Assembly (NCBI GenBank): GCA_963726195.1
Contig: CAVSBO010000004.1
Span: forward strand, 192,001 to 256,000
DNA: 64,000 bases
Reading direction: 5' to 3'
From: Candidatus Thorarchaeota archaeon
Lineage (GTDB): Archaea > Asgardarchaeota > Thorarchaeia > Thorarchaeales > Thorarchaeaceae
Position numbers and translations under genes: made by a program. Position 1 is the stretch's first letter. Every line of letters begins with the position of its first letter. This document shows positions 4,860 through 52,882 of the stretch, piece after piece. The notes beneath the pieces are model-generated. The model worked only from the letters and a program-made list of their open reading frames with translations. It was not told where the DNA came from and ran no database searches.

Positions 4860-6032
4860 TCACCTTCCAAGAATATGTACTATCGAAGTTGCGCCAGTCC
4901 CTCCGATATTCACAGCCATTGCTTTCTCTGCACCACTCACTTGGCGCTTTTCGGCGTCTCCCCTGAGTTGGAACACGAGCTCGACAATCTGAGCAACCCC
5001 AGTTGCTCCGATAGGGTGTCCCCTGGCCTTGAGACCACCGGACGGATTAACAGGATACTTCGCGCCAATCTCTGTCAAACCTTCATCCAGCAGCTTGCCA
5101 CCCTTTCCCTTCTCGGTGATTCCGACGTCTTCGGTCAGCATTATCTCTCCTATGGTGAAAGAATCGTGCAGCTCAAACACATCAATGTCATTGATAGTCA
5201 ATCCCGCCTTCTTCAGAGCTTCCCTACTTGACGAGACTGCAGCGTCCATGGTGCATATGTCTCGTCTGTCGTGCAAAGCCAGGGTATCGCTTGATTGAGT
5301 TGAAGCCTCAATGTAGATGGGCGTGTCTGTATAACGCTTGGCCATCTCTTCGCTGCACATGATGAGACCTGCTGCACCATCACTGATCGGAGAAGAGTGA
5401 AGGACTCTGATAGGGTCCGCGATTAATCCTGATTTCATGACGACATCGAGAGGCACAGCCTTCTGGAACTGAGCCGAAGGATTGTGTTCGGCGTTCTTGT
5501 GATTCTTGACAGCAACTTGTGCGAGATGTGTCTCTGTTGTTCCATATTCATGCATATGTCGTCGTGCCATGAATGCATAGAGCGCCGGGAATGTAGCCCC
5601 GAAAATGCCTTCCCATTCCCAATCGGCAGCCACACCCATGGTTCTCATCGCTTCGGACTGGTTTACGTCACTCATCTTTTCGCAGCCGAGGACTAGCATG
5701 AGATCATGCTCCCCGGATCTTATTGCCATGTACGCTTGGCGGACTGCGGCTCCACCGCTGGCGCATGCTGCTTCCACACTGTAGGCTGGGATGTGACCCA
5801 AGCCGCCCATGTCTGCAGCCAGAGCGCCCAAGTGTTCTTGGCCTGTGAAACGGCCGGCGCTCATGTTGCCAATGCAGATGGCTTCGATATCTTTTCCTGC
5901 CACCTGAGAATCAAATATCGCATACATACCAGCTTCGAGTGTGATGTCTCTGAGACTCTTATCCCACAGTTCGCCGAACTTGCTAATCCCAACGCCAACA
6001 ATAGCGACTCTCTTCTTCACAGCCATTTGCAT
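4860..6032 (-). CDS. Acetyl-CoA acetyltransferase (archaeal thiolase)
   Basis: EAACASGG, ELHDSFT, GHPIGATG; lies between HMGCS and DUF35. Confidence 0.95.
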   Translation of the reverse strand: MQMAVKKRVAIVGVGISKFGELWDKSLRDITLEAGMYAIFDSQVAGKDIEAICIGNMSAGRFTGQEHLGALAADMGGLGHIPAYSVEAACASGGAAVRQAYMAIRSGEHDLMLVLGCEKMSDVNQSEAMRTMGVAADWEWEGIFGATFPALYAFMARRHMHEYGTTETHLAQVAVKNHKNAEHNPSAQFQKAVPLDVVMKSGLIADPIRVLHSSPISDGAAGLIMCSEEMAKRYTDTPIYIEASTQSSDTLALHDRRDICTMDAAVSSSREALKKAGLTINDIDVFELHDSFTIGEIMLTEDVGITEKGKGGKLLDEGLTEIGAKYPVNPSGGLKARGHPIGATGVAQIVELVFQLRGDAEKRQVSGAEKAMAVNIGGTGATSIVHILGR

Positions 6033-6037
6033 CCAAC

Positions 6038-7087
6038 CTACATGTTTATGGTGTGTTTGTACTTGGCATAGGTAGCATAGCTTACGTACACCTTTCTCTG
6101 AATGTAATCATCAACAGTTGGGACTTCTCCGCGATGCCCTAGGATTTCATCTTCCACACGGATAGTGAAACCGTCGCTACCTGCTCCGGATCCATATGAT
6201 ATGACAAATATCCTGTCCCCGGGTTTTGAAATATCCAGCACTCTGGCAAGACCAATCATAGCTGACCCGGAGTATGTGTTCCCAATTTGGCGAACCACCA
6301 AGCTATCTTCCAGCTTCTCCGATGGAACACCAAGCTGTTTTCCCACCGCCACTGGGAACTTGCCATTGGGCATGTGAAACACGAAGTAATCAAAGTCGTC
6401 CACCGAGGTCCCTGTTGTCCGAAATAGCAGTTTTGCACACTCTTCGACATGTCGGAAGTAAGCGGGCTCACCAGTAAACCGAGCTCCATGACTGGGGAAG
6501 TCTTCGCCCTCGCGGCGCCAGAAGTCCGGGGTATCGGATGTGACCGAGACAGTCTTCTCAATCGTTGCCACAGGATTATCCTCGCCAATCAGGTATGCCG
6601 CTCCACCGGCCGCTGCTGAGTACTCCAGTGCATCGCCTGGTCTTCCCTGCGCTGTATCAGCTCCGATAGCGAGCCCTATCTTGACCATTTTGGATTGAAC
6701 TAGACCCATGGAAGTCTGTATTCCGGCTGTTCCAGCTTTGCATGCAAACTCGAAGTCAGCGCATGTGATTTCGCTCGAACACCCTATCGCCGCTGCAACA
6801 ATCGTCCCTGTGGGCTTCACAGCATAGGGGTGGCTTTCCGATCCGACGTACACAGCTCCTATGTCCTTGGCGTCAATCTTGCCGTACTTGATGGCATTCC
6901 TCGCCGCCTCCGTTGCGATGGTTGCTACATCCTCGTCCGGACCGGGCAGAGACTTCTCGATAACTCCGAGACCCTGTGCCATTGCTTCCCCGTCTTCGCC
7001 CCAGACCTCGGCAATGTCTAATGTCCGGATGCGATATCTCGGTATGTAGATGCCGTAGCCGACTATGCCAACCATATAATTGGTCAC
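6038..7087 (-). CDS. hmgS: Hydroxymethylglutaryl-CoA synthase (archaeal type)
   Basis: [18 protein letters not shown] (catalytic Cys), [25 protein letters not shown]. Confidence 0.95.
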
Positions 7088-7395
7088 TCCTTTCAGAGTT
7101 TGAAGAACGTCGAATTTTCCTTCGTCATCTTTCTCAATTAGCCACGGGGCGGCGCGAGAGTCCTTTAAGAAGATTGTTGTAGCCCTTCCCGTGAATGAAC
7201 GGCTTTCGCCGAACGCGTACTGTCACGAATGCACTATGACGACGCACGAATGGGACGGCTCGGCTATTTATGACTAACGACGGGAGCCAAGGCCAAGATT
7301 CCGGCTGCACGCCGCTCCCCTTTCGTCCGTTCGTTTGAGTGGGCGCGTGATTGATTGGACCGTGGGCCTCGAATTAAGCATATAAGCTGTTAGAA

Positions 7396-7614
7396 GTGTC
7401 TCTGTACAGGGTGTCATATTTGGCCACAGTTCTAAGAACAGTTCGGCTGACGAGAGTCGAGGTCACTGAAACTAAGACGGTGGCCCAGCTGTTGCATGAC
7501 CTCAATCTTTCTCCTGATCACATCGTGTTAGTCGACGGACATAGGATGACATCTGGCTCCATCATACACGAACACGACAATGTCATTGTGCTTCCCCTTA
7601 TTGCGGGTGGCTAG
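7396..7614 (+). CDS. MoaD/ThiS/SAMP-family ubiquitin-like protein
   Basis: TVAQLL..L, IVLVDG, D.VIVLPLIAGG* with free C-terminal GG; start codon uncertain. Confidence 0.85.
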   Translation: MSLYRVSYLATVLRTVRLTRVEVTETKTVAQLLHDLNLSPDHIVLVDGHRMTSGSIIHEHDNVIVLPLIAGG

Positions 7615-9112
7615 TCGTTCGGATTCTTTGTGCGAACTTATGAGCTGCTTCCAAGTCTATTCTTAGCTCAGCAATGGGCTCACTGCGAATCGGGAATCCG
7701 ACCTCCATCGCAATTCTGTCTAGAACGATTTTTGTAAGTTGACTCTTGTCTTTGTTCTCAAGCTGTGGCGGGCACTCAGTTTTTTCAGATATAGCTCTTG
7801 AGAGCGCCTTCTGAGACCCCGAGCTATACTGCGTTGCCTTCTTTGGGCTGAAAGCAATGATTTCAGGCAGCCCCATGTTGACGGCAAGTTGCCTGAAGAT
7901 AGCTTTCCGTTCTGGCGGGTTGTCTGAAGAGATCTTCCATCGAGAAGGCACTGCAAGGGCTTCGAGAATGAACCGACTATTCAGATATGGGAAGAACGCG
8001 CTTAGGCCATTGTAGCCTACCGCTCTCTCGTCGCGCGCGATGTTTGTCTTGTGTGTTTGCTGAACCTCGGAGCGCAGTTCTTCATCGAGTGCATCTTCTC
8101 CATTCTCTGCAAATAGCTTGGCATGTTTTGAATATCCGCCGAACAACTCATCCGGACCTTGACCCGAAATCAGTATGGTCTCTCCTGAACTTCTTGCTGC
8201 GCGAGCCGCGATGAAGAACGGAAGAGCAATCTCGATATCTATTTGCCGAGTTGTTTCAATGGCGTAGATTATCTCAGGCAGATTCTCCCAAACGGTGTCT
8301 GGGTCGAATGGGGCAATTTCCAGTTCTAGGCCTAATCCCCGAGCGGCGGTGGATGCAGACTCCTCGTCGTGCGACCCTTCGGCGCATGCGGTAAACAGGG
8401 TTACTTCCCTGCAAACCGTCTTGGCAAGCAAAGCTGCAAGTGAGTTATCAACCCCACCTGAGAACAGAACTCCAACGCGCTCAGCGGCACGCAGAGAACC
8501 AAAGCAATTCTCCAGGCTTTTTTGAAGAGACGTAAGAAAGTCCTCACGCGATCGGCTTTTGTCCGTACGTGGATATGATTTCTCCAGTGCTGAGACTACT
8601 GACTGGGGATGACGCAAATCCACTCGAAGCGTTTGATTGGGTTCGAGTTCTATGCTATTGTACAAGCCAATGCTCCAGAGGGCCTTTCTTTCGGTAGAGA
8701 ATGCAAGATTCCCTTCTGACCACTGGAAGTACATTGGGTTTGTGGAATGTCCATATCTTGAGACGATGAGATCCGACTGACTAGCTCCCATGATTAGAGC
8801 ATCGGCCAGTTCTGGATGCTCGATGTCGATATCGCTCTTTAGATCAGCGACTCCGGATTTCAAGAGCTGTTCGACTGTCTCTTGGCAATCATTCCACGAA
8901 CACACGACAAGCGTCTGTTTGTTCGCACGAAGTGCGAAATGATCTTGAATCAGAGGCGACCGGACTGCGAAGCCGAATTGCGCAGAAAGACCATGATCCG
9001 AGACAACAAGCCTCTCTTGTCCTCTGTGCTCCATGGCGTCGGACATACGCCGGAGCACCCTAGATGGACTAGCGGCGTTGTGGGTGCTGTAGAAGCCTAC
9101 GATACCTACCAT
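7598..9112 (-). CDS. Asparagine synthetase-like ATP pyrophosphatase (AsnB family) with degenerate glutaminase domain
   Basis: LFSGGVDN, SGQGPDELFGGY, FPYLN, PKKATQYSSG. N-terminus is MVGIVG instead of MCGI. Confidence 0.8.
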   Translation of the reverse strand: MVGIVGFYSTHNAASPSRVLRRMSDAMEHRGQERLVVSDHGLSAQFGFAVRSPLIQDHFALRANKQTLVVCSWNDCQETVEQLLKSGVADLKSDIDIEHPELADALIMGASQSDLIVSRYGHSTNPMYFQWSEGNLAFSTERKALWSIGLYNSIELEPNQTLRVDLRHPQSVVSALEKSYPRTDKSRSREDFLTSLQKSLENCFGSLRAAERVGVLFSGGVDNSLAALLAKTVCREVTLFTACAEGSHDEESASTAARGLGLELEIAPFDPDTVWENLPEIIYAIETTRQIDIEIALPFFIAARAARSSGETILISGQGPDELFGGYSKHAKLFAENGEDALDEELRSEVQQTHKTNIARDERAVGYNGLSAFFPYLNSRFILEALAVPSRWKISSDNPPERKAIFRQLAVNMGLPEIIAFSPKKATQYSSGSQKALSRAISEKTECPPQLENKDKSQLTKIVLDRIAMEVGFPIRSEPIAELRIDLEAAHKFAQRIRTTSHPQ

Positions 9113-9215
9113 TGCAATCAGCAGAGCTTATTCTTGGCGTAATCTTGGAACGGAAAGGAGCTTCCTCTCTTGCTCGCTAGGCCAGCTATCTGGGGACTGT
9201 TGGCTCGACATGGAC

Positions 9216-9635
9216 TCACTTGGATACTGGCACATCATGCAGTATAACGTTCTGTACCCCAGATATCGCCTTGAGCGAGCGTTCGAGGTTGGCGACAGGC
9301 ATCTTGAGCTGACCCGGTGTGAAATAACACTCATAGTAGCATTGGTTCGCAGCTTGACAGATTCCGCTAGTGAAGAGAATGTCTTGGAGCCCGGCCTTAT
9401 CAAAGATAGTTGTGAGTTCTTCCAGAAAGCTCTTGCTCAATTTCTGAATGTCCAGCTTGAGGTAAGTCACCTTGTCGCTGCCAACTGGATACAACTTGAC
9501 ATTCTTGTCCTTCATGACAAGTATCGCAAGCCCGTAGGGCTGCCCAATACCGTCCACGAAGTCCGCTGGCAATGTAATCGCATTGCCTTTCACTATCTTC
9601 ATCACTCTTGCTTGAGTCATGTCCGTCTTGCTCAA
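9216..9635 (-). CDS. Hypothetical protein, probable AbrB-like N-domain plus ACT-like C-domain
   Basis: KIVKGNAITLPADFV resembles the AbrB swapped hairpin. C-half has an ACT-like pattern ending LKAISGVQNV. Confidence 0.55.
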   Translation of the reverse strand: MSKTDMTQARVMKIVKGNAITLPADFVDGIGQPYGLAILVMKDKNVKLYPVGSDKVTYLKLDIQKLSKSFLEELTTIFDKAGLQDILFTSGICQAANQCYYECYFTPGQLKMPVANLERSLKAISGVQNVILHDVPVSK

Positions 9636-9833
9636 TGATTGTGCCTCCGAACTAAGCCAAGGAGGAAATCACTTGATGCAATTATATCTCTTGTGGGAAT
9701 TGCCATCTAAGCGGCAGCTGGGTGTCTACGAAGCATTCGCTATGGCATAAGCCTGTCAATTGGCCAGCAGACTGGTCTGTGTCGAGTCATAGATAAAAGC
9801 TGACACGATTGCTTGAACCTGCTGCACTGCAGA

Positions 9834-11036
9834 CTAGTCAACTCTCAAGGCTACGCATGCGACGATGGCAGCCGCCACGACTATTCCTAGTATGAGCATT
9901 GCTCTCCAATCGAGCAACGGAGGTACAACGTGGTTCGGGTCCTCTTGGTCAAGAAGAGATGTGTAGCCAAGAATTCCGAGGGCTTGAACTGCTAGTCCTG
10001 CATTAGGAAGTGTGCCCACAGCAAGCCCCGGCACATTTCCCCAGCTGCCATCAGCAGCTTGGCATTGTGCTATGAACTGTGCCGCAGATTGCTCGTCGGC
10101 CTGAGCCAAGGCATTCAGAGCTTGCAGGCCCTCAATGGCATAGAATGTGCTTGCAAGGTTGGTGTCGTTTGTGCCTGGGCCTTCTTCAAAACCGCTTATT
10201 GTAATGCCTTGAACAGAGCCGCTGATTTGGCGGCTCAGTATCCAGTGCGCAATGTCGCCGCTTCCTGCTAGTGACGGCAACTGGTTGAGAGCGTCCAATG
10301 CGAGAATTGCTGCGACGGTCGGAGTGACACCCGTAATGGATGAGTTTGGACTGAGTTTGAAGCTGTTGCCGACGCGACAGCTAAGGATCCAATCCAGGGT
10401 CTTGGTTTCGTTGCGCAACCACCTGCTACGGTTCTCATCTGGTTTCAGTTGCAGAAGTGTGTTTAGAGACTGCAAAGCGAAGTATGTTGAGACAATATCT
10501 GGCGCACTACCAGAAGCGGTGCCAAACCCACCAGAGCTTGTCTGCGTCTTGTTGACATAGATTAGGGCTGCGGTCACGTTGAATTTGATAGTGTCCAGGT
10601 TTGGGATGTCGGTGATTTTGCTGAGAAGACTCCAGAGCTCCAACGCTGTCCAGGTGCTCTGTATGGTCACTGGGCCGGCGATGTACGTGCTAAACCCACC
10701 ATAACGGTTGTAGCTGTCTCCGCCAGATTTCCATTGAATCTTCTGGGTGAAATTCTTCATCTTGACGAGGTCTATCATAGGTGGTCTCGAAGAAAGGTAT
10801 CCAAGGCTGTTGAGTATCAGAGCCGCCGCTCCGGTCGCCTCTATCCGTGATGTGTTCTCTTTGGTGATGGAATATCCTCCTTGAACTGCGTCATATCGTC
10901 CTGCAACAAACGAAATCAGTGATTCCTTTCTAGTTGCAGGATTGGCCGAGGCGGGCTGGACCAGAAATGGCAGGATGATAAGGGCGAATGCAACAACCAA
11001 GCCAACAGTTCTGACCTTGCTCATGTCAAGACGCAC
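9834..11036 (-). CDS. Exported, C-terminally membrane-anchored prenyltransferase/squalene-oxidase-repeat protein
   Basis: Signal peptide; repeats QTSSGGFG..PDIVSTYFALQSL, RQ...GFEEG..NLASTFYAI, CQAADGSWG; C-terminal TM helix. Confidence 0.8.
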   Translation of the reverse strand: MRLDMSKVRTVGLVVAFALIILPFLVQPASANPATRKESLISFVAGRYDAVQGGYSITKENTSRIEATGAAALILNSLGYLSSRPPMIDLVKMKNFTQKIQWKSGGDSYNRYGGFSTYIAGPVTIQSTWTALELWSLLSKITDIPNLDTIKFNVTAALIYVNKTQTSSGGFGTASGSAPDIVSTYFALQSLNTLLQLKPDENRSRWLRNETKTLDWILSCRVGNSFKLSPNSSITGVTPTVAAILALDALNQLPSLAGSGDIAHWILSRQISGSVQGITISGFEEGPGTNDTNLASTFYAIEGLQALNALAQADEQSAAQFIAQCQAADGSWGNVPGLAVGTLPNAGLAVQALGILGYTSLLDQEDPNHVVPPLLDWRAMLILGIVVAAAIVACVALRVD

Positions 11037-43785: not shown

Positions 43786-46700
43786 GTGAACTTAAGAATC
43801 CGCGGCGCTCGCGAACACAACCTCAAGGGCGTAGACGTCGACATTGGTGACGGTCTCACAGTTGTTACGGGCGTCTCCGGCTCTGGCAAGACATCCTTGG
43901 TGTTCGATACACTATATCATGAATCGCGCCGGCGGTTCCTCGATGTGTTCTCAACGCGTGCTCAGTTGATTCGTCTTGCTCCCGCGAATGTTGAGTCACT
44001 GACCGGCGTGGGCCCCGCGGTTGCCGTCGGTCAGAATCTTCTGAACCGCAATCCTCTTTCTACGGTCGCAACCGCGTGTGGGCTTCACCCGTTCCTCCGC
44101 CTTCTTTATGCAAGGTTTGGTGTCAGGTACTGCTCTCAGTGCGGAGAAGGCCTGTCCATTCTTTCAGAGGATGAAATACTGGAGAGAATCCTTGCTATCT
44201 CGAGGCAGGATAAGGTCACGCTCTATGCCCCGATTGTGCGCGACGCAAGAGGAAGCCATCGCACTTTGCTGGAAATTCTTTCAACGGAGTTCGGCAAGGA
44301 GTCTCTAGTTGTGGACGGAAGATCTTTGTCCGACAAGCGCCTGCGACCTATTGACGAGCATACGATTGAGGTGAGGCTTGCTAGTCTCTCACCCGGCTCT
44401 CCTCTGGCGGCCGTTCGTTCCGCCATCGAGAGGTCTGCCGCACTGGGTGCCAGCGCGATTGTTGCGGACACTGATGGCTCAAGACTGGCTCTATCAAGGG
44501 CCCCGATTTGTCCCACTTGTGGAACTCATTTTGACGAGATCCAGCCTGTTCATTTTCACACTGCATGCCCGTACTGTGAAGGCAAAGGGTGTCAGGAGTG
44601 TAGCATGTCCGGACTCCTCCCGCAGGCTGCGGCGGTCCGATGGGAGAATCTCAGAATCGATGAACTGCTTGCTCTCACCGTAGACGAGGCACAGGCTCTC
44701 TTCACGAAGACCAATATGCCTTCGACTGGTAATCGTTTGAAATCAGAGATTGCGAAGAGGCTTGATGCACTTCAAACAGTGGGCCTTGGATACATTCAGC
44801 TATGCAGGTCGTCGCCGACGCTTTCGCGAGGAGAATCGCAGCGCGTTCGCTTGGCGGTCTGTTTGTCAAGTCGACTGGAAGATGTGTTGCACGTGTTGGA
44901 TGAGCCTACAATAGGCCAACATCCTGCTGATGTTGCGAGGATTCTGCCAGCCTTCCGGAATCTTGCAGGACCCGTGGTTTATGTTGAGCATGACAGAGCC
45001 GCAGCCGCTTATGCTGACCGGGCGATAGACCTCGGGCCCGGCGCGGGCGATGAAGGAGGAAAAATGGTATTCGCGGGTGCACCTGCAGACTTGTGGCAAT
45101 CGGAAACAATCACGGGACGCTACTTCAGCCTGCGTGAAAGGGTGGTCGCTGCCGCGCCGCGATCAAAGTCCAAACAATTCCTAGAGATTCTCGGAGCCAA
45201 TGTTCATAATCTTCAGGCCATAGACATCTCGATTCCGGTAGGCAGGTTCGTAGTGATAACAGGAGTATCGGGCTCGGGTAAGAGCACGCTTGTCGAGGAT
45301 GTTCTGGTCCCATCACTTGCTAAGGGAAAGCCTGTGAACTGCAGAGCGGTGATTGGACCCAAGCTTAAGCCTGTGGTCGTAGATCAGAGTCCGATTGGTC
45401 GCAATCCCAGATCAAACCCCGCCACTTACACAAAGCTCTCCGACATTGTTCGGGACTTGTATGCGAAGCAGACCGGATTGTCGCCGTCGCACTATTCGTT
45501 TAACAGGCCTGAGGGTGCCTGTCCCACCTGTGCTGGCATCGGAGCCGTTGAAGTGAAGATGCGGTATCTGCCTTCAACTTGGATTCCATGCTCAGACTGT
45601 GATTCTCAACGGTTCTCAGATGAAGTACTTTCGAGAAAGGTCGAACTCGGTGGGCAGAGACTGTCGATTGCGGATTTCTACAGGCTATCTATCTTTCAGG
45701 TCCGTGCTCTCTTGGCAGAGGATAGTCGGCTTTCTGCAGCAAACCGAGCTTCTGTCAGAAGCATGCTGGATGCGTTGGTAACAATCGGACTTGGCTACGT
45801 CCCCATGGGCCAACCATCACCCAGCCTTTCAGGCGGTGAATCGCAGAGAGTGAAGCTTGCCAAGTTTCTGGGTAGAAAGAAGCTCGCCGACCGTCTGATA
45901 ATCCTAGATGAACCGACTACCGGATTACACCCACGAGATCTCAGAGGCTTGCTAGAGGTTCTCAACACGCTAGTCGAAGCCGGAGCCAGCGTGGTTGTTG
46001 TCGAGCATAATCTGGACATCATTCGAGCGGCGGATTGGGTGGTTGATCTTGGTCCTGGAGCAGGACCCATGGGAGGTCAGGTTGTCTACGAGGGCCCACC
46101 CAGCGAACTGATGACCACGAGAGCCTCTGTAACTGGGAAGGCATTAAGGGAAGAAGAATCAATCCATCCTCAGGCGGGAGCTGGGAAGGTTGGTGGACAA
46201 TCAGACTGCATCTCGATTAGGAATGCTCGCGCGAATAACCTCAAGGGTGTTGACATAGACATTCCCAAGGGGCTGTTCACGGTCGTCACCGGAGTGTCTG
46301 GTTCTGGCAAGTCCAGCCTTGTTCATGATGTGCTTGAGGCTGAAGCCAAGAGGAGATTCTTGGAGAGTCTCTCATTATATGAAAGACAAGGAATCCAAGA
46401 AGGTCCGGAAGCTCCTGTTGGATCAGTCAGTGGGCTCGGCGTTTCAGTGTCTATCACTCCGGGTGAAAGGCTTTACAGTAGACGTTCTACGGTCGGGACT
46501 GTCACTGAGATTTCACATCATCTTGCAGTCCTGCTTGCTACGCTTGGCGAACGCACGTGTCTCAAATGCGGAGCGAAGATGGAGAGAGGCGTGGAATGGA
46601 CATGCGCGACATGCGAGGAGACCGCTCCTGTTCTTGAGGCAAGGCACTTCTCATCGTCCACATACTACTCGGCTTGTCCAATGTGCAACGGGATCGGCAC

Positions 46701-48647
46701 TCTTCAGGTGCCCGATTCTAGTAAGCTAATCATCAATCCTGACCGGGCAATATGCGGCGGAGCAATGTACTCCCCCGGTTTCTTCCCTAAAGGTTACCTG
46801 TGCAAACCGTACAACCATGGTTACTATTTCGTGCGGGCTTTGGGCCATCGATATGGTTTCGACCCGGAAATCACACCGTGGAATGAAATGAATCCTGAAG
46901 CGCAGAATGCTTTCTTGTTTGGCGACTCGGAGCCACTCAGTGTAACGGTCGAGAGTCGGACCAGACCTCCCACAATCAGGAATCTCCCATATCGCGGATT
47001 CTACGGTCTCATAGGAGACTGGGACGTTGGCGGAACCTACACGAGCACCAAGATTTGCACACAGTGCAATGGCACTGGGTTTCGTCCTGAGGTCTTGGCG
47101 GTTAGACTCGCTGGATACGATGTTCATGCACTTGGTGAGATGCCACTTACCAGACTGTTCTCAAGTCCTCGGTACTCTGGAGACCGTGGTTCCAAAATCA
47201 ACTCAGTCCAAAGCCAACTTGAAAACAATCCTAGAACGCCTGAAGTTCCTAGTCAGTGTCGGGGTCGGATATCTGCATTTGAACAGAGTCTCAGCCACCC
47301 TCTCTGCTGGCGAGGCTCAAAGAGTTCGCATTGCAGGGATTCTCGGAAGTGGTCTCACGTCACTGACGGTCTTGCTTGATGAGCCGTCCAGAGGAATGCA
47401 TCCGTCAGAAGTGGATGCACTCGCCAATGTCCTGAAAGAGCTGCGACACGAAGGCAACACCGTTGTCGTGGTGGAGCACGACCCGGCCCTAATCAAAGCC
47501 GCAGACCACATCGTGGAGATGGGCCCCGGTCCTGGAGACGATGGCGGGAACGTAATTGCAGAAGGCAATATCGATGATGTTGGGAGGACCGACACTCCGA
47601 CTGGTAGGTGGTTGCGAGGCGAGTTCAGGATAGAAATCCCGAAGGAGAGAAGAGAACCAAAGGATTGGCTCGTTGTAAAGGGCGCACGAGAAAACAACCT
47701 TCGCGAAGCGGATGTCAGAGTGCCTCTCGGCCTGCTAGTAGGCGTGTGTGGTGTCTCGGGCTCGGGAAAGAGCACTCTCATAGTGGACACGATAGGCCGT
47801 GCCCTTGCGCCAAGACAGATAACGACGAGTGTTGCGCAGGAACCGATGCAACCTGGCGCCCATGACTCGATCGAAGGCGCACCAAGAAGAACAATCGTTC
47901 TTGATCAGACCCGCGAACACATAATCAATCCCGGTCAATTTCTCGATGTCTTTGGACCACTGACATCCCTGTATGCTGAGAGCAATGATGCCAAGGCCCT
48001 TGGGCTTTCTGAGGACGATTTGACCAGACCATGTTCCACATGCGATGGTCGGGGGATGATCCGAACCGACATGGGTTTTCTCCCGGATGCGATTACACCT
48101 TGCGAGACATGTCAGGGGACCGGGAGGTCAAAGGAGTCTTGGGACGTACGTGTGAGCGGCGTTGCGTATCCAGAGCTTGCCCGGTTGACCATTGACCGGG
48201 CTTGGGCGTTGTTCGGTGAAATCGGAGCCATTGGAAGGAGGCTGCAGGCTGCAAGGGATGTCGGCCTAGGCTATCTTGTCCTACACCAACCGGGCCAGAC
48301 ACTATCAGGCGGGGAGTGTCAGCGTTCTCAAGATTGCAAAGGAGCTTTCACGGGATGTCCCATCACCGACGATGTATATTCTGGATGAACCTACAGTGGG
48401 CCTGCACGTTCAAGACGTGGACAGACTGATTCGAGTATTGCGTACGATAGTGGATGGCGGAGATTCTGTTGTTGTGATTGAGCATCACCCTCATTTTCTT
48501 TCAGCATGTGACTGGCTTATTGAACTAGGTCCAGGGGCAGGACCGGACGGAGGCCGGGTTATTGCTTCAGGTACGCCTGAGCGCATAGCACACTCTGATA
48601 CACCAACTGCTCCATATCTAAGAGACGTTCTGGAGGCCGAAAGATGA
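43786..48647 (+). CDS. uvrA: Tandem-duplicated UvrA-like ABC ATPase with four nucleotide-binding domains; frameshifts near 47158 and 48325
   Basis: Four GVSGSGK(T/S) Walker A motifs, four LS(R/G/A)GE.QR signatures, four LDEP Walker B motifs, GARxxNL motifs and multiple CxxC Zn sites. Confidence 0.88.
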
Positions 48648-49681
48648 CTTGGGCCGCCCTTCTCTTGGCAGATCCTTCTCCCTGTTCTCAGGCTGCTCGT
48701 TCTTCGGGAACTCCTGCATCGTCCTGAGGGAGACCCCGAACTCAGCGAGCTAACCAGCTCAAGGATGAAGATCCCGTCTCTAGGATGCTTCTTCGCTTGC
48801 AGCTTGATGATGGTTCGTGGAAAGACACATCGGCTTCCGGAAGTGCTCGAAGAGAGCGTCACATTGCGACGTCACATGCATTAGCAACCTTGGGTTTTCT
48901 TGGATATAATGCAGAGCACCCGGCTGTCAAGCGCGGCACAGAGTATCTCTTCTCAAAGCAGAAGCATGACGGGTCGTGGCCACTTCCCGGCAATTGGGAA
49001 CGCGAGGAACCGACGGCAAAGGGCTACACAATGATTCCTCTGCAGACGGCAGTTCCTCTTCGTGGCATTGCAGCATGCGGTCTTGGAACGGACCCGCGAG
49101 CTGAACAGGCGTATGAGTGGCTGCTGTCCCAGACCCTAGAGGATGGGTCTTGGCCAACGGGGAAGGCTGGCGAGGTCTACGGACGTGTTGCAGGTTATCG
49201 GCGTTTGCCACACTCACGCTGGGGCTGCCGGTCGAACACAACAGCATCACTGATTTGCTTGGCCCTGCACGCGGCAAGGAGGACAAGCACTGCGGCCAAG
49301 CGGGCACTTGACGTACTTCTTGCGCGAGAAACACGTGAACGGCTCGATTTGGGCTTTGAGGTTGCGAGGACCATCGGGGTCGAGAAGTCAAGCGGCTTCC
49401 TTACGTATCACGCCAAGTTCGATATGGCGCTCCTTCTCGGTCTATGTTGGAGAATAGGCGCGGACAAGAGCGATGAACGCATTTCCGAACTGACTAACTA
49501 CATCATAAAACAACAAGGCATGTACGGCCTTTGGGAATACCTGCCTCACCCAGAGGCATCGAGGTGGGTGACCTTCGATATTCTTAGGTCACTGGAGCAA
49601 CTGGACAAGTCGACGGATTGGCTGACGATGGAGCCCCGTACCGCCTTCAGTGCCTATCCGAAGAGAACAAAACGATATTGA
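48644..49681 (+). CDS. Cytoplasmic QW/prenyltransferase-repeat alpha/alpha-barrel protein; N-terminus disrupted by two frameshifts
   Basis: ATG 48644 overlaps the UvrA stop (ATGA). MTWAALLLADPSPC-LRLLVLRELL; QLDDGSW, QKHDGSW, QTLEDGSW, QGMYGLW. Confidence 0.75.
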
Positions 49682-50243: not shown

Positions 50244-50630
50244 TCATTCTGCCAAGATGAGAATGCGTTTCGTCTTAACGCCCGTGCTGGTGTTTATGAG
50301 TTCTAGGAGTTTCGTGACTAGGCGTGTAATGTCTGGGTTCTCGATGTCGAGTATCACACCGCTCGAGTCGACGAAGTTCACATGTGGCTCAGGGTTGAGC
50401 TCGTAGCGCGTTTCACCATTGTATGAGAACCTTTGGATGAGGCCGATGTCCACCATTACTGTCAGGTTATTGAGTATGGTAGACTCGCTCACGTTTGCGT
50501 ACTTCTTCTTGACATTTTCACAAACCTCAGAGAATGACGGATGGTGGCGTCCCATCTTCTCAAGAACCTTGAGGAGTTCGACCCGTTGCGGCGTGAGCCG
50601 CAGTCCGTGCTCCTTTAGACTCTCGTTCAC
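50244..50630 (-). CDS. Fur/PerR-family transcriptional regulator
   Basis: LKEHGLRLTPQR, HHPS, VSESTILNNL, RYELNPEPHVNF; divergent from DpsL. Confidence 0.88.
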   Translation of the reverse strand: MNESLKEHGLRLTPQRVELLKVLEKMGRHHPSFSEVCENVKKKYANVSESTILNNLTVMVDIGLIQRFSYNGETRYELNPEPHVNFVDSSGVILDIENPDITRLVTKLLELINTSTGVKTKRILILAE

Positions 50631-50667
50631 AAGATTGAGGACGTAAGTGTGAGTTATAAACGTATCC

Positions 50668-50708
50668 GAAGTAAGATTTATATAGAAGTTACTACGACTT
50701 AGAAGTAA
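50668..50708. promoter_or_regulatory. Candidate operator overlapping dpsL TATA box
   Basis: GAAGT(A/T)A at 50668, 50685 and 50702 (17-bp period) around TTTATATA (50677-50684). Confidence 0.5.
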
Positions 50709-50719
50709 GGTGACATAAT

Positions 50720-51271
50720 ATGGCGCGTGTCGCTAGAGAAATGGTTGAAAAAGCAGGAATCGACGTCGACAAGCTGCTGACCCTCTTGGTAAAGAATGCG
50801 GCGGCCGAGTTGACTACGTTCTACTACTACACAATCCTCCGAGTCAATTTGATTGGACTAGAGGGTGAAGGGATAAAGGAAATTGCAGAAACAGCACGGA
50901 TCGAGGACAGGAATCACTTCGAGGCATTGGTTCCCCGTATCTACGAACTTGGTGGCGAGTTGCCAGCAAGCATGGTTGATTTTCACAACCTAACAGCTTG
51001 CCCACCTGCGAAACTGCCCAAGGATCCCAAGGACATCAAGGCGATGCTGACAGTGCTCGTTGAGGCAGAGCGATGTGCAGTCAGGGGATACACCCAGATC
51101 TGCAACCTGACAGCTAGCAAGGACCACAGAACCTACGATCTTGCCTTGGCCATTCTGAATGAGGAAATCGAACATGAGTCTTGGTTTTCAGAGTTCCTAG
51201 GCGAAGGCCCATCTGGTCACTTTCTCCGTCGTGGCGAAACATCGCCCTTCGTGGGGAAGTTCATGCGCTAG
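50720..51271 (+). CDS. dps: DPS-like (DpsL) archaeal ferritin-superfamily protein
   Basis: AAELTTFYYYTILR, ARIEDRNHFE, ACPPA, AERCAV, DHRTYDL, EEIEHESWF. Confidence 0.93.
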   Translation: MARVAREMVEKAGIDVDKLLTLLVKNAAAELTTFYYYTILRVNLIGLEGEGIKEIAETARIEDRNHFEALVPRIYELGGELPASMVDFHNLTACPPAKLPKDPKDIKAMLTVLVEAERCAVRGYTQICNLTASKDHRTYDLALAILNEEIEHESWFSEFLGEGPSGHFLRRGETSPFVGKFMR

Positions 51272-51646
51272 AGTGCAGCATGTCTTTCGTTCTCTGATGT
51301 ACTGTTCTTGCCCACAATTCTGCTTCGGCATCCCAGACTGAAGGGAGGTTGGGCGAGAATAAGCCTCGTGGCCCTTGGACGGGCTATTTCATGCTCGTCC
51401 TTGCGGCCTAGTTTTCCCAAAATGGAGTATGCCAGTCAGCTCACTTCTCGATAGTTTGCAGAGGTATTGATTATAAGAGCCCCAGTAGCTCTTGCGGAAG
51501 ACTCCAACCGGCGTAATGCCTGAAGCTATCCCCAAGGAAAACAAAGCTAGAGGCAAAGAATGTATGTTTTGTCAATGTTGTCCGAGACGCAAATCGACTG
51601 AAAGGAAGTGGGGTGTTCGGAAATGTCCGGTTCGCCGCCAGACACA

Positions 51647-52882
51647 ATGAAGTCACGCACCCGACTGAGGAATAGTCAGTTTCTCAAATTCTTTGGCCCG
51701 GCACTTGTAGTCAGTGTTGCATATGTTGATCCTGGCAATTTCGGGACGGCCATAGCAGCGGGAGCAGGTTATGAGTATGACCTTCTTTGGGTGGTCTGGC
51801 TTGCCAGTATCATGGCCATGCTGTTGCAGTATCTCTCGGGGAAAATCGGAATAGCTACTGGTCGCAGTATGCCCGAGTTGGTGCGAGAGAAGCTGAAGTC
51901 GAGACGAAAGATCCTGACTTACTGGCTCTCATGCGAGGCATTCGCTGTGGCCACAGACTTGGCCGAATTCCTCGGCGTTGCGCTGGCACTTAACCTTCTG
52001 TTCGGAATACCCCTATTGTGGGCTGCTGCCATTGCATCCTTTGACGTTGTGTTTATCTTCCTACTTGCTGGGAGTAAGTTCAGGCGTATAGAGGCACTAG
52101 TCGGCGTCCTCGTATCAATCATAGGGTTCGGATATGTCTATGAGATTTTCATCACGCGACCTGACCTCATGTCTGTAGTATTCCACAGTGTTACTCCCAC
52201 ACTGACCCCAGCGACCGGTCCTCTTGTGATAGGAATGATAGGCGCAACTGTAATGCCGCACGCCTTGGCCGTCCATTCATGGTTAACCAAGAACAAGCTG
52301 ACTGTCGGCGATGAGGAGGAAAAGCGTCGACTTCTGAAATATCACCTCGCTGATAACGTGATTAACCTCTCTATTGCGGGCCTAGTGAACGCCGCAATCC
52401 TGATTATGGCCGCTGCGGCCTTCAGCGCAACTGGGAGCCCTGTCACAACGGTGGAACAGGCATATCGTACCCTGACTCCCCTCTTCGGGGTCTTGGCGAG
52501 TTCAGTTTTCGGTATCACACTGCTCGCATCAGGCCTGTCATCTTCAACAACTGGTGTGCTCGCTGGACAGGCTTTGATGGAAGGACTCTTGGGCAGGACT
52601 ATCCACCCGTGGTTAAGAAGGATAGTGGTGCGGGTAATCAATGTCGTTCCTACATTCGTGGCCATATACCTGGGGTTCAATGCACTTGAACTACTGGTTT
52701 ACAGCCAAGTCATTCTGAGTCTATTGATACCACTCCCACTGATACCTATCATCTACTTGACAAGCAAGAAGGCCATAATGGGACAATTCGTGAACCGCAG
52801 AGTGACAACCATTGTAGCCTTAGCCTTCGCATCATTAATACTAGCATTCAACGCGTATTTCTTGCTACAAGTCTTCCTGTAA
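51647..52882 (+). CDS. mntH: Nramp-family Mn2+/Fe2+ transporter
   Basis: AYVDPGN, TDLAEFLG, GATVMPH, GQALMEG; about 11 TM helices. Confidence 0.93.
   Translation: MKSRTRLRNSQFLKFFGPALVVSVAYVDPGNFGTAIAAGAGYEYDLLWVVWLASIMAMLLQYLSGKIGIATGRSMPELVREKLKSRRKILTYWLSCEAFAVATDLAEFLGVALALNLLFGIPLLWAAAIASFDVVFIFLLAGSKFRRIEALVGVLVSIIGFGYVYEIFITRPDLMSVVFHSVTPTLTPATGPLVIGMIGATVMPHALAVHSWLTKNKLTVGDEEEKRRLLKYHLADNVINLSIAGLVNAAILIMAAAAFSATGSPVTTVEQAYRTLTPLFGVLASSVFGITLLASGLSSSTTGVLAGQALMEGLLGRTIHPWLRRIVVRVINVVPTFVAIYLGFNALELLVYSQVILSLLIPLPLIPIIYLTSKKAIMGQFVNRRVTTIVALAFASLILAFNAYFLLQVFL

Follow-up and report, generated by a model that had tools for sequence, protein, structure and literature searches.

UvrA is among the best-studied DNA-damage sensors. 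To our knowledge, neither the way in which UvrA hands over a lesion nor the role of UvrA paralogues that occur without UvrB has been settled, and we know of no report linking the (alpha/alpha)6 terpene-cyclase-type fold to DNA metabolism. The class IIa UvrA proteins are single-length and lack the UvrB-binding domain and the first zinc finger, and one of them, Ecm16, confers resistance to echinomycin through its ATPase activity with no need of UvrA, UvrB, UvrC or UvrD (PMC9328131). Here we describe a locus in which a UvrA of unusual build is coupled to a protein of the terpene-cyclase-type fold. It lies in a stretch of 64,000 nucleotides (nt) from a Candidatus Thorarchaeota archaeon (GenBank assembly GCA_963726195.1, contig CAVSBO010000004.1, positions 192,001 to 256,000), referred to below as the window. 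The first gene (positions 43786 to 48647, plus strand) encodes a single-chain double UvrA with a real length of 1619 amino acids (aa), and the second (48644 to 49681, plus strand), which we call the toroid gene, encodes a QW-repeat protein of 345 aa predicted to form a single (alpha/alpha)6 barrel. We consider the chances about even that this pair is a self-contained, horizontally mobile accessory operon whose two proteins survey DNA together and need neither UvrB nor UvrC.

The association of the two genes is the strongest evidence for this reading. An earlier note on the window, made from the letters alone, had proposed a dedicated two-gene module and had set co-location of the homologues as its refuting test, a test that the module passes. 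A scan of one genome per prokaryotic species returned 219 relatives of the toroid, and pair counts were taken from 80 fetched loci. A double UvrA gene lies directly upstream of the toroid gene, on the same strand, at 74 of these 80 loci and at 74 of the 75 where upstream DNA is present. Five of the six unpaired loci end at a contig edge, and at the sixth (L058) the double UvrA of the genome lies on a separate contig with no toroid gene adjoining. The start codon of the window toroid gene overlaps the UvrA stop codon as the earlier note had read it (AAGATGA at 48641 to 48647, the TGA being the end of the last UvrA piece), giving an ATGA stop/start overlap at 48644 to 48647 on the plus strand. 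An exact 4-nt NTGA overlap recurs at 57 of the 74 paired loci, and all-against-all clustering of the flanking open reading frames (ORFs; 80 loci, within 10 kb on each side) yielded no third conserved gene. The pairwise distance matrices of UvrA and toroid correlate at r = 0.93, a value matched by none of 2000 permutations, and their mean divergence is equal. This correlation at equal divergence shows at least that the two genes are inherited and transferred as one unit. Full-text literature searches gave no description of a double UvrA paired with a toroid, in agreement with the claim that the pairing had gone undescribed. Four apparent natural UvrA-toroid fusions in public collections (P0271, P0272, P0273 and P0275; 741 to 2072 aa) were considered and rejected as frameshift read-throughs. 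In P0271 to P0273 the C-terminal tail of UvrA is garbled immediately ahead of the MTW start of the toroid, and in P0275 the UvrA tail continues out of frame into the next gene, while its cluster mate P0277 ends normally. These proteins therefore provide no Rosetta-stone evidence.

The pair is found in both prokaryotic domains. Many carriers are archaea and bacteria of sediments. The archaeal carriers include Thor-, Heimdall-, Hod-, Hermod- and Promethearchaeota and Bathyarchaeia, and the bacterial carriers include Anaerolineae and other Chloroflexota, KSB1, Aminicenantes and Zixibacteria, with identities between archaeal and bacterial members of 50 to 65%. Within the phylum of the window, the toroid gene occurs in 69 of 301 sampled genomes, with genus g9 contributing 8 of its 25 genomes and genus g12 contributing 7 of its 14. 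Judged from this distribution, the pair is an accessory, horizontally mobile module. The same patchy spread, even within genera, together with the crossing of the boundary between archaea and bacteria, would be expected of an anti-phage or anti-plasmid defence system in which the UvrA-like ATPase would detect DNA that is foreign or modified, with the toroid as a new effector or sensor subunit. In support of such a role, PADLOC matched the UvrA to the MADS components mad3 (E 4.8e-120) and mad8. These matches, however, run through generic UvrA/ABC modules only, the toroid had no match to any PADLOC model, and the pair holds no nuclease, toxin or other effector domain. Moreover, no defence genes recur among the neighbour clusters of the 80 loci, of which the recurrent ones were typed, and the context of the window copy is housekeeping. 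We thus regard a defence function as quite unlikely.

The double UvrA has four intact ATPase sites in one chain, with two ABC modules per UvrA unit. Across 34 intact orthologues, no variation occurs in any of the four sets of Walker A, signature (LSxGExQR), Walker B (DEP) and H-loop motifs or in the zinc-module cysteine pairs, and an intact orthologue of 1619 aa is present at locus L002, where the pair spans 4913 to 10806. In the window, the three pieces of the gene score 910, 342 and 109 bits, in order, against the UvrA model TIGR00630, and the first piece exceeds the cut-off of 730. The two halves have lost different domains. Half 1 spans UvrA model positions 2 to 285 and 402 to 923 and is missing positions 286 to 401, the insertion domain, whereas half 2 lacks positions 128 to 251, the UvrB-binding domain, and keeps the insertion domain. 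In half 1, C116/C119 and C242/C245, the cysteine pairs of the first zinc module, flank a UvrB-binding-type domain of about aa 118 to 244 (44137 to 44517, plus strand), and half 2 keeps C925/C928/C940/C943. The assignment of this docking-type domain rests on both a profile and an AlphaFold2 (AF2) model. A profile of half-1 residues 100 to 262 aligns end to end with the UvrB-binding region, residues 127 to 289, of solved UvrA (E 3.7e-23) and also with the isolated UvrA interaction domain 3fpn_A, and the AF2 model of the domain (pLDDT 91.6) superimposes on 3uwx_A with a TM score of 0.76 and on 3fpn_A with a TM score of 0.81 and a root-mean-square deviation of 2.6. The insertion, or DNA-binding, domain of half 2 covers about aa 968 to 1090 (46687 to 47055, plus strand), with a match to PF17755 (UvrA_DNA-bind) at aa 977 to 1072. 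It is unusually conserved, with a consensus dense in invariant residues, while the UvrB-binding-type domain is the least conserved stretch of the whole protein.

Whether this protein works with UvrB was addressed through co-occurrence. The earlier note had found no uvrB or uvrC in the 64-kb window, which is correct for the window itself; about 86 kb past the window end, the contig does have a canonical uvrC-uvrA-uvrA-uvrB cluster (C4:341915-351472). With respect to INDEPENDENCE from UvrB/UvrC, 50 carrier genomes were checked, and uvrB is present in 42 of them. Seven of the eight carriers without uvrB are Bathyarchaeia, in which uvrC and class I uvrA are missing as well and the double UvrA is the main UvrA-type gene. 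The remaining one, Thorarchaeota OWC3, starts a contig with uvrC and two uvrA genes, so that its uvrB is probably unassembled. The seven Bathyarchaeia genomes indicate, by co-occurrence, that the module is independent of UvrB and UvrC in that lineage at least, and the Bathyarchaeia double UvrA keeps its docking-type domain although no uvrB is present in the genome.

These observations also bear on the possibility that the pair feeds into canonical repair as an accessory front end, in which the double UvrA recruits UvrB through its single UvrB-binding domain and hands lesions to UvrB and UvrC while the toroid only tunes substrate range or stability. A docking domain of canonical fold in half 1, the high frequency of uvrB among carriers and the presence of uvrC, two uvrA genes and uvrB on the contig of the window are what such a function would predict. 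On the other hand, the pair and its docking domain persist in the seven Bathyarchaeia in which there is no uvrB, uvrC or class I uvrA, the pair adjoins uvrB or uvrC at none of the 80 loci, and only one docking domain is left per pseudo-dimer. We consider a front-end function unlikely. The earlier note had suggested instead that the toroid may replace UvrB as the partner of the double UvrA. The retention of the docking domain in the seven Bathyarchaeia without uvrB is consistent with that idea, but 42 of the 50 carriers have uvrB, and the replacement is putative.

The second protein is small and ring-shaped, with highly conserved loops. The window toroid matches PF13243 (SQHop_cyclase_C) with an E value of 2.8e-10 and 40.2 bits against a cut-off of 26.1. 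We collected 1785 homologues, mostly 345 aa long and starting MTWAALLLADPSPCLR. They form a tight family, in which about 15 full-length representatives (50% clustering) score well and generic QW proteins fall to about 90 bits, and a protein atlas returned only this unnamed family itself. The family profile matches squalene-hopene cyclase residues 494 to 592 (E 6e-27) through toroid residues 47 to 181 only. In the AF2 model (pLDDT 78.5, pTM 0.82) the protein is a single (alpha/alpha)6 barrel, and squalene-hopene cyclase (Z 15.5) heads its fold matches, ahead of other terpene cyclases, with MstE at a TM score of 0.47; next come thioester domains, sugar epimerases and GH76 at Z 12 to 14, the level of generic barrels. 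No signal peptide is apparent, as judged from the N-terminus MTWAALLLADPSP only. The earlier note had counted four QxxxGxW motifs. Three are exact in the corrected protein (Q53, Q106 and Q291), while the fourth (QTLEDGSW, Q163) is longer by one residue. Two further remarks of that note on this protein were accurate: the DxDD cyclase motif (D.DD) is absent from the corrected window toroid and from nine family members, and the basic patch that had looked conserved, GRVAGYRRLPHSRWGCRSNT (49181 to 49240, plus strand; alignments A1, A2 and A4), is the most conserved part of the family.

This patch is a loop, with the pattern YR...GCRxxT, that runs into the seventh helix. Residues invariant in the most divergent members include T135, P138, Y185, R186, C195, R196, T199, D260 and R279. 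They sit in long loops ahead of predicted helices, with the motifs PLQT, YR...GCRxxT and FD immediately ahead of helices 5, 7 and 9, and these loops are of low confidence in the model, above all residues 174 to 193. At the barrel mouth, the loops may make up a site for binding or catalysis that takes on order only when a partner or ligand is present. Two more specific assignments were rejected. A zinc site of the form H190-x4-C195-x9-C205-x3-H209 was dropped because H190 and C205 vary in divergent members, in which C195 alone is invariant. A thioester domain of the complement/alpha-2-macroglobulin type (CGEQ) does not fit by its motif either: the toroid has GCR(S/T)N(T)T, which contains no Gln, the two most divergent members have T in place of N198, and the fold match to thioester domains, at Z 13 to 14, is again that of a generic barrel.

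Could the toroid simply be a conventional enzyme of lipid or secondary metabolism, acting on terpenoids or in prenyl transfer, that is co-transcribed with UvrA and has no role at DNA? A Pfam score above the cut-off, terpene cyclases as the top fold matches and the QW motifs would all favor such an assignment. The protein nevertheless has no DxDD acid, consists of a single 345-aa barrel instead of the two barrels of a cyclase, and reaches only 42 bits against a cut-off of about 323 for the equivalog TIGR01787 (and 34 against 431 for TIGR01507). No isoprenoid genes recur nearby, and the strict overlap and co-evolution with UvrA over two domains of life are hard for chance co-transcription to explain. 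We therefore judge a purely metabolic role to be very improbable.

The data show that the genes are paired, how the domains are arranged, that the motifs are intact, which fold the toroid has and, by co-occurrence, that the pair is independent of UvrB and UvrC. Physical binding of the two proteins, the docking site, the substrate and any chemistry are inferred. We propose the following mechanism for a two-protein surveillance machine. The 1619-aa chain would act as a covalent UvrA pseudo-dimer with four ATPase sites, a docking domain in half 1 and a highly conserved insertion domain in half 2. As UvrA does, it would spend ATP to search the double helix for distortions, for example where a bulky adduct sits or an intercalator is bound. 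The toroid, a cytoplasmic protein of 345 aa whose output the ATGA overlap would keep in fixed proportion, would serve as a dedicated second-step partner, taking the step that belongs to UvrB in canonical repair and that class II UvrA proteins such as Ecm16 and DrrC carry out without a partner. The motifs PLQT, YR...GCRxxT and FD would line the mouth of the barrel, where a bulky or hydrophobic moiety could be held and possibly processed. The toroid may bind an intercalator or adduct, as the earlier note had envisaged. Ecm16 is the nearest functional precedent for the pair. This proposal draws together the pairing and overlap counts, the lack of a third conserved gene, the correlated distances, the invariant ATPase motifs, the docking domain, the Bathyarchaeia without UvrB and UvrC, and the single-barrel toroid that is homologous to squalene-hopene cyclase, lacks DxDD and has invariant polar and aromatic residues, and it is further supported by the Ecm16 precedent (PMC9328131), by gene contexts that include PadR, acyltransferase, methyltransferase and class II UvrA genes, and by the finding, described below, that the window copy is really intact.

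Several points weigh against the proposed mechanism. Binding between the double UvrA and the toroid is putative, and the toroid contains no recognised nuclease, glycosylase or DNA-binding motif. Complex predictions for the toroid with UvrA residues 88 to 365 and 895 to 1195 scored 0.72, 0.71 and 0.75, while partner-swap controls scored 0.41 and 0.00 and a control with chain 2 replaced scored 0.70; we use these scores in neither direction. Low conservation of the UvrB-binding-type domain is unexpected for an interface with a highly conserved partner. Since uvrB is present in 42 of the 50 carriers, including the genome of the window, hand-over to canonical repair is possible outside Bathyarchaeia. 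Among the seven Bathyarchaeia genomes without uvrB, the closed chromosome (genome G026, locus L041) has an apparently truncated UvrA frame of 616 aa beside the toroid gene and a separate N-terminal UvrA fragment about 540 kb away, and the module may be decaying or rearranged there; the other six are assemblies whose completeness is not known. Finally, the flanking genes of the window (MetRS, HAD hydrolase, cupin, Fur, ferritin, Nramp and phosphoribosyltransferase) are housekeeping in nature and give no functional hint.

We also considered a stronger form of the proposal, in which the toroid is a new lesion- or DNA-ligand-processing enzyme that uses the invariant Cys195 and Arg196 at the mouth of its barrel and forms, with the single-chain UvrA, a complete two-protein pathway free of UvrB and UvrC. 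We hold this version to be possible but, on balance, doubtful. If true, it would be the only UvrA-based system in Bathyarchaeia and would give the terpene-cyclase fold its first role in DNA repair.

The deposited copy of the pair looks broken, and we examined whether this reflects the organism. The earlier note had called a double UvrA here, which stands for the corrected gene, an intact frame of 1619 aa, but not for the deposited copy, which is split over three frames (43786-47379, 47015-48388 and 48270-48647) by two 1-nt assembly insertions. It had also taken 48644-49681 as one open frame and so missed the broken deposited frames, given that an in-frame TGA at 48725-48727 interrupts the translation of that frame. 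Relative to its 345-aa homologues, the window toroid gene has a surplus T near 48685 and is one A short after 48755, two compensating 1-nt errors that leave codons 15 to 37 out of frame between them and give rise to the TGA. We compared each site (all on the plus strand) with contigs from public short-read runs of near-identical strains, two of which are 99+% identical to the window. At the first UvrA frame break (47158 to 47159), which the ORF overlap 47015-47379 encloses, two contigs of run X5 have one base fewer than the deposited GT[T]CTCA. The second break, at 48325, is a surplus base in the same GT[T]CTCA context, and contigs of runs X3 and X5 have one base fewer. In the toroid gene, the surplus T at 48685, again GT[T]CTCA, is lacking from contigs of runs X1 (99+% alike) and X5, and contigs of X1, X3 and X5 add an A after 48755 at the site of the missing base (ACC-A[A]G-CTC, 48755 to 48756).

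All four indels of the window are thus absent from the short-read contigs of other runs. Once the four corrections are applied, the UvrA frame is open over 1619 aa and is 84.6% identical, without gaps, to the protein of Thorarchaeota OWC5, and the toroid frame is open over 345 aa and is 89.6% identical, without gaps, to P0001. We attribute the frame breaks to assembly errors because canonical uvrB and uvrA elsewhere in the 19-contig assembly are broken likewise and because the short-read contigs are free of the indels; on these comparisons, both genes are evidently intact in the organism. It could be argued that the pair consists of decaying pseudogenes, or that the finding is an artefact of a poor assembly, as the in-frame TGA, the four frame breaks and the damage to uvrB and uvrA elsewhere in the genome might suggest. 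Against this stand the independent 99+% identical contigs without any of the four indels, the gap-free alignment of the corrected open genes to intact orthologues, and the sharing of one sequence context by three of the four errors, which suggests systematic base-calling error. We find a pseudogene or artefact explanation exceedingly improbable.

The errors themselves have a pattern. In the canonical cluster beyond the window, uvrB is in two frames near 350372, one uvrA has an in-frame TGA and the other a shifted C-terminus, and these breaks are of the single-base kind seen in the window. GT[T]CTCA is the context of all three insertion errors in the pair (47158, 48325 and 48685). Counted over the window, GTTCTC is more common than expected (65 versus 44 +/- 7) and GTCTC rarer (152 versus 185 +/- 13). 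Intact GTCTCARG sites persist in the window, so a rule based on a modified or methylated GTCTC motif is suggestive but not clean. The insertions may stem from long-read base calling that errs systematically, perhaps where a motif is modified. Systematic single-base errors break many genes of the deposited genome, and its annotations should not be read as pseudogenes.

The host and the wider gene neighborhood add some context. The MetRS encoded in the window is 94% identical to its counterpart in Thorarchaeota isolate OWC5, where MetRS, HAD hydrolase, double UvrA and toroid follow one another in the order seen here, which bears out the guess of an Asgard origin. Just downstream of the pair, at 50244 to 52882, a Fur-family regulator on the minus strand, a ferritin-like protein and an Nramp transporter make up a metal-homeostasis cluster. 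At loci of the Loki/Hermod type and at some of Thorarchaeota, the pair ends a longer operon of PadR, a BtrH/DarH-like acyltransferase, an S-adenosylmethionine methyltransferase, a class II UvrA, the double UvrA and the toroid (L052:324-11035; also L053, L056, L060, L073, L081 and L036, and partly L016 and L049). The class II UvrA of this operon is 833 aa long, lacks the UvrB-binding domain and lies immediately upstream of the double UvrA. At five Bathyarchaeia loci (L063:1756-3723; also L029, L043, L067 and L068), a gene for an S9 prolyl oligopeptidase with a beta-propeller follows the toroid gene by 28 to 38 nt on the same strand, and multidrug-type ABC exporters lie near the pair at some Anaerolineae loci. 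These contexts are lineage-specific, and they lean towards a role in the handling of xenobiotics or genotoxins.

In summary, our study describes a covalent, asymmetric UvrA "dimer" with a toroid companion that, on present evidence, has spread horizontally through Asgard archaea, Bathyarchaeia and Chloroflexota and appears to be the sole Uvr-type system in one lineage. If the two proteins work together, they would open up a new branch of DNA surveillance, structural biologists would gain a UvrA that is single-chain by nature, and the (alpha/alpha)6 barrel would acquire a new function; two genes in E. coli suffice to test this hypothesis directly. Set beside the known systems, the toroid shares its (alpha/alpha)6 barrel and QW repeats with squalene-hopene cyclase and the single-barrel type II terpene cyclases (1gsz; MstE, 6sbb). 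It differs from squalene-hopene cyclase in having one barrel of 345 aa rather than two barrels of about 630 aa and in lacking the DxDD general acid. Its YR...GCRxxT loop and basic C-terminal tail have no counterpart in terpene cyclases, and its genomic partner is a DNA-repair ATPase. The zinc-dependent toroids, such as the protein prenyltransferase beta subunit and LanC, have conserved Cys/His/Asp zinc ligands at the barrel mouth; the fold matches of the window toroid to GGTase-III beta (Z 10.3) and MadC (Z 12.3) do not exceed those to generic barrels.

For the UvrA, the strong matches to mad3 and mad8 of MADS show that UvrA-like ATPases serve in defence systems, but the likeness ends with the UvrA/ABC modules, given that the toroid corresponds to no defence model and no other defence-system genes recur in the flanks. 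A model of a roughly double-length "excinuclease ABC subunit A" is known (NF001885, PRK00635, 1809 positions), and membership in that family was considered and rejected: the double UvrA reaches 520 bits, far below the cut-off of 3054, over model positions 398 to 1066 only, and it is therefore a different fusion. Class I UvrA (TIGR00630; 2r6f, 3uwx and 9gxk) has the ABC-ATPase motifs, zinc modules, UvrB-binding-type domain and insertion domain in common with the window protein, which in contrast is two units fused in 1619 aa, with four ATPase sites per chain and a different domain absent from each half (the insertion domain from half 1, the UvrB-binding domain from half 2), and which is paired with a toroid gene and found in genomes without UvrB or UvrC. 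The class IIa proteins Ecm16 and DrrC also belong to the UvrA family, and half 2 resembles them in lacking the UvrB-binding domain. They are single-length, are encoded in antibiotic biosynthesis clusters and act alone, working on DNA without UvrB, UvrC or UvrD, whereas the double UvrA is double-length, retains one UvrB-binding-type domain, has the cysteines of the first zinc module in both halves and comes with a toroid partner.

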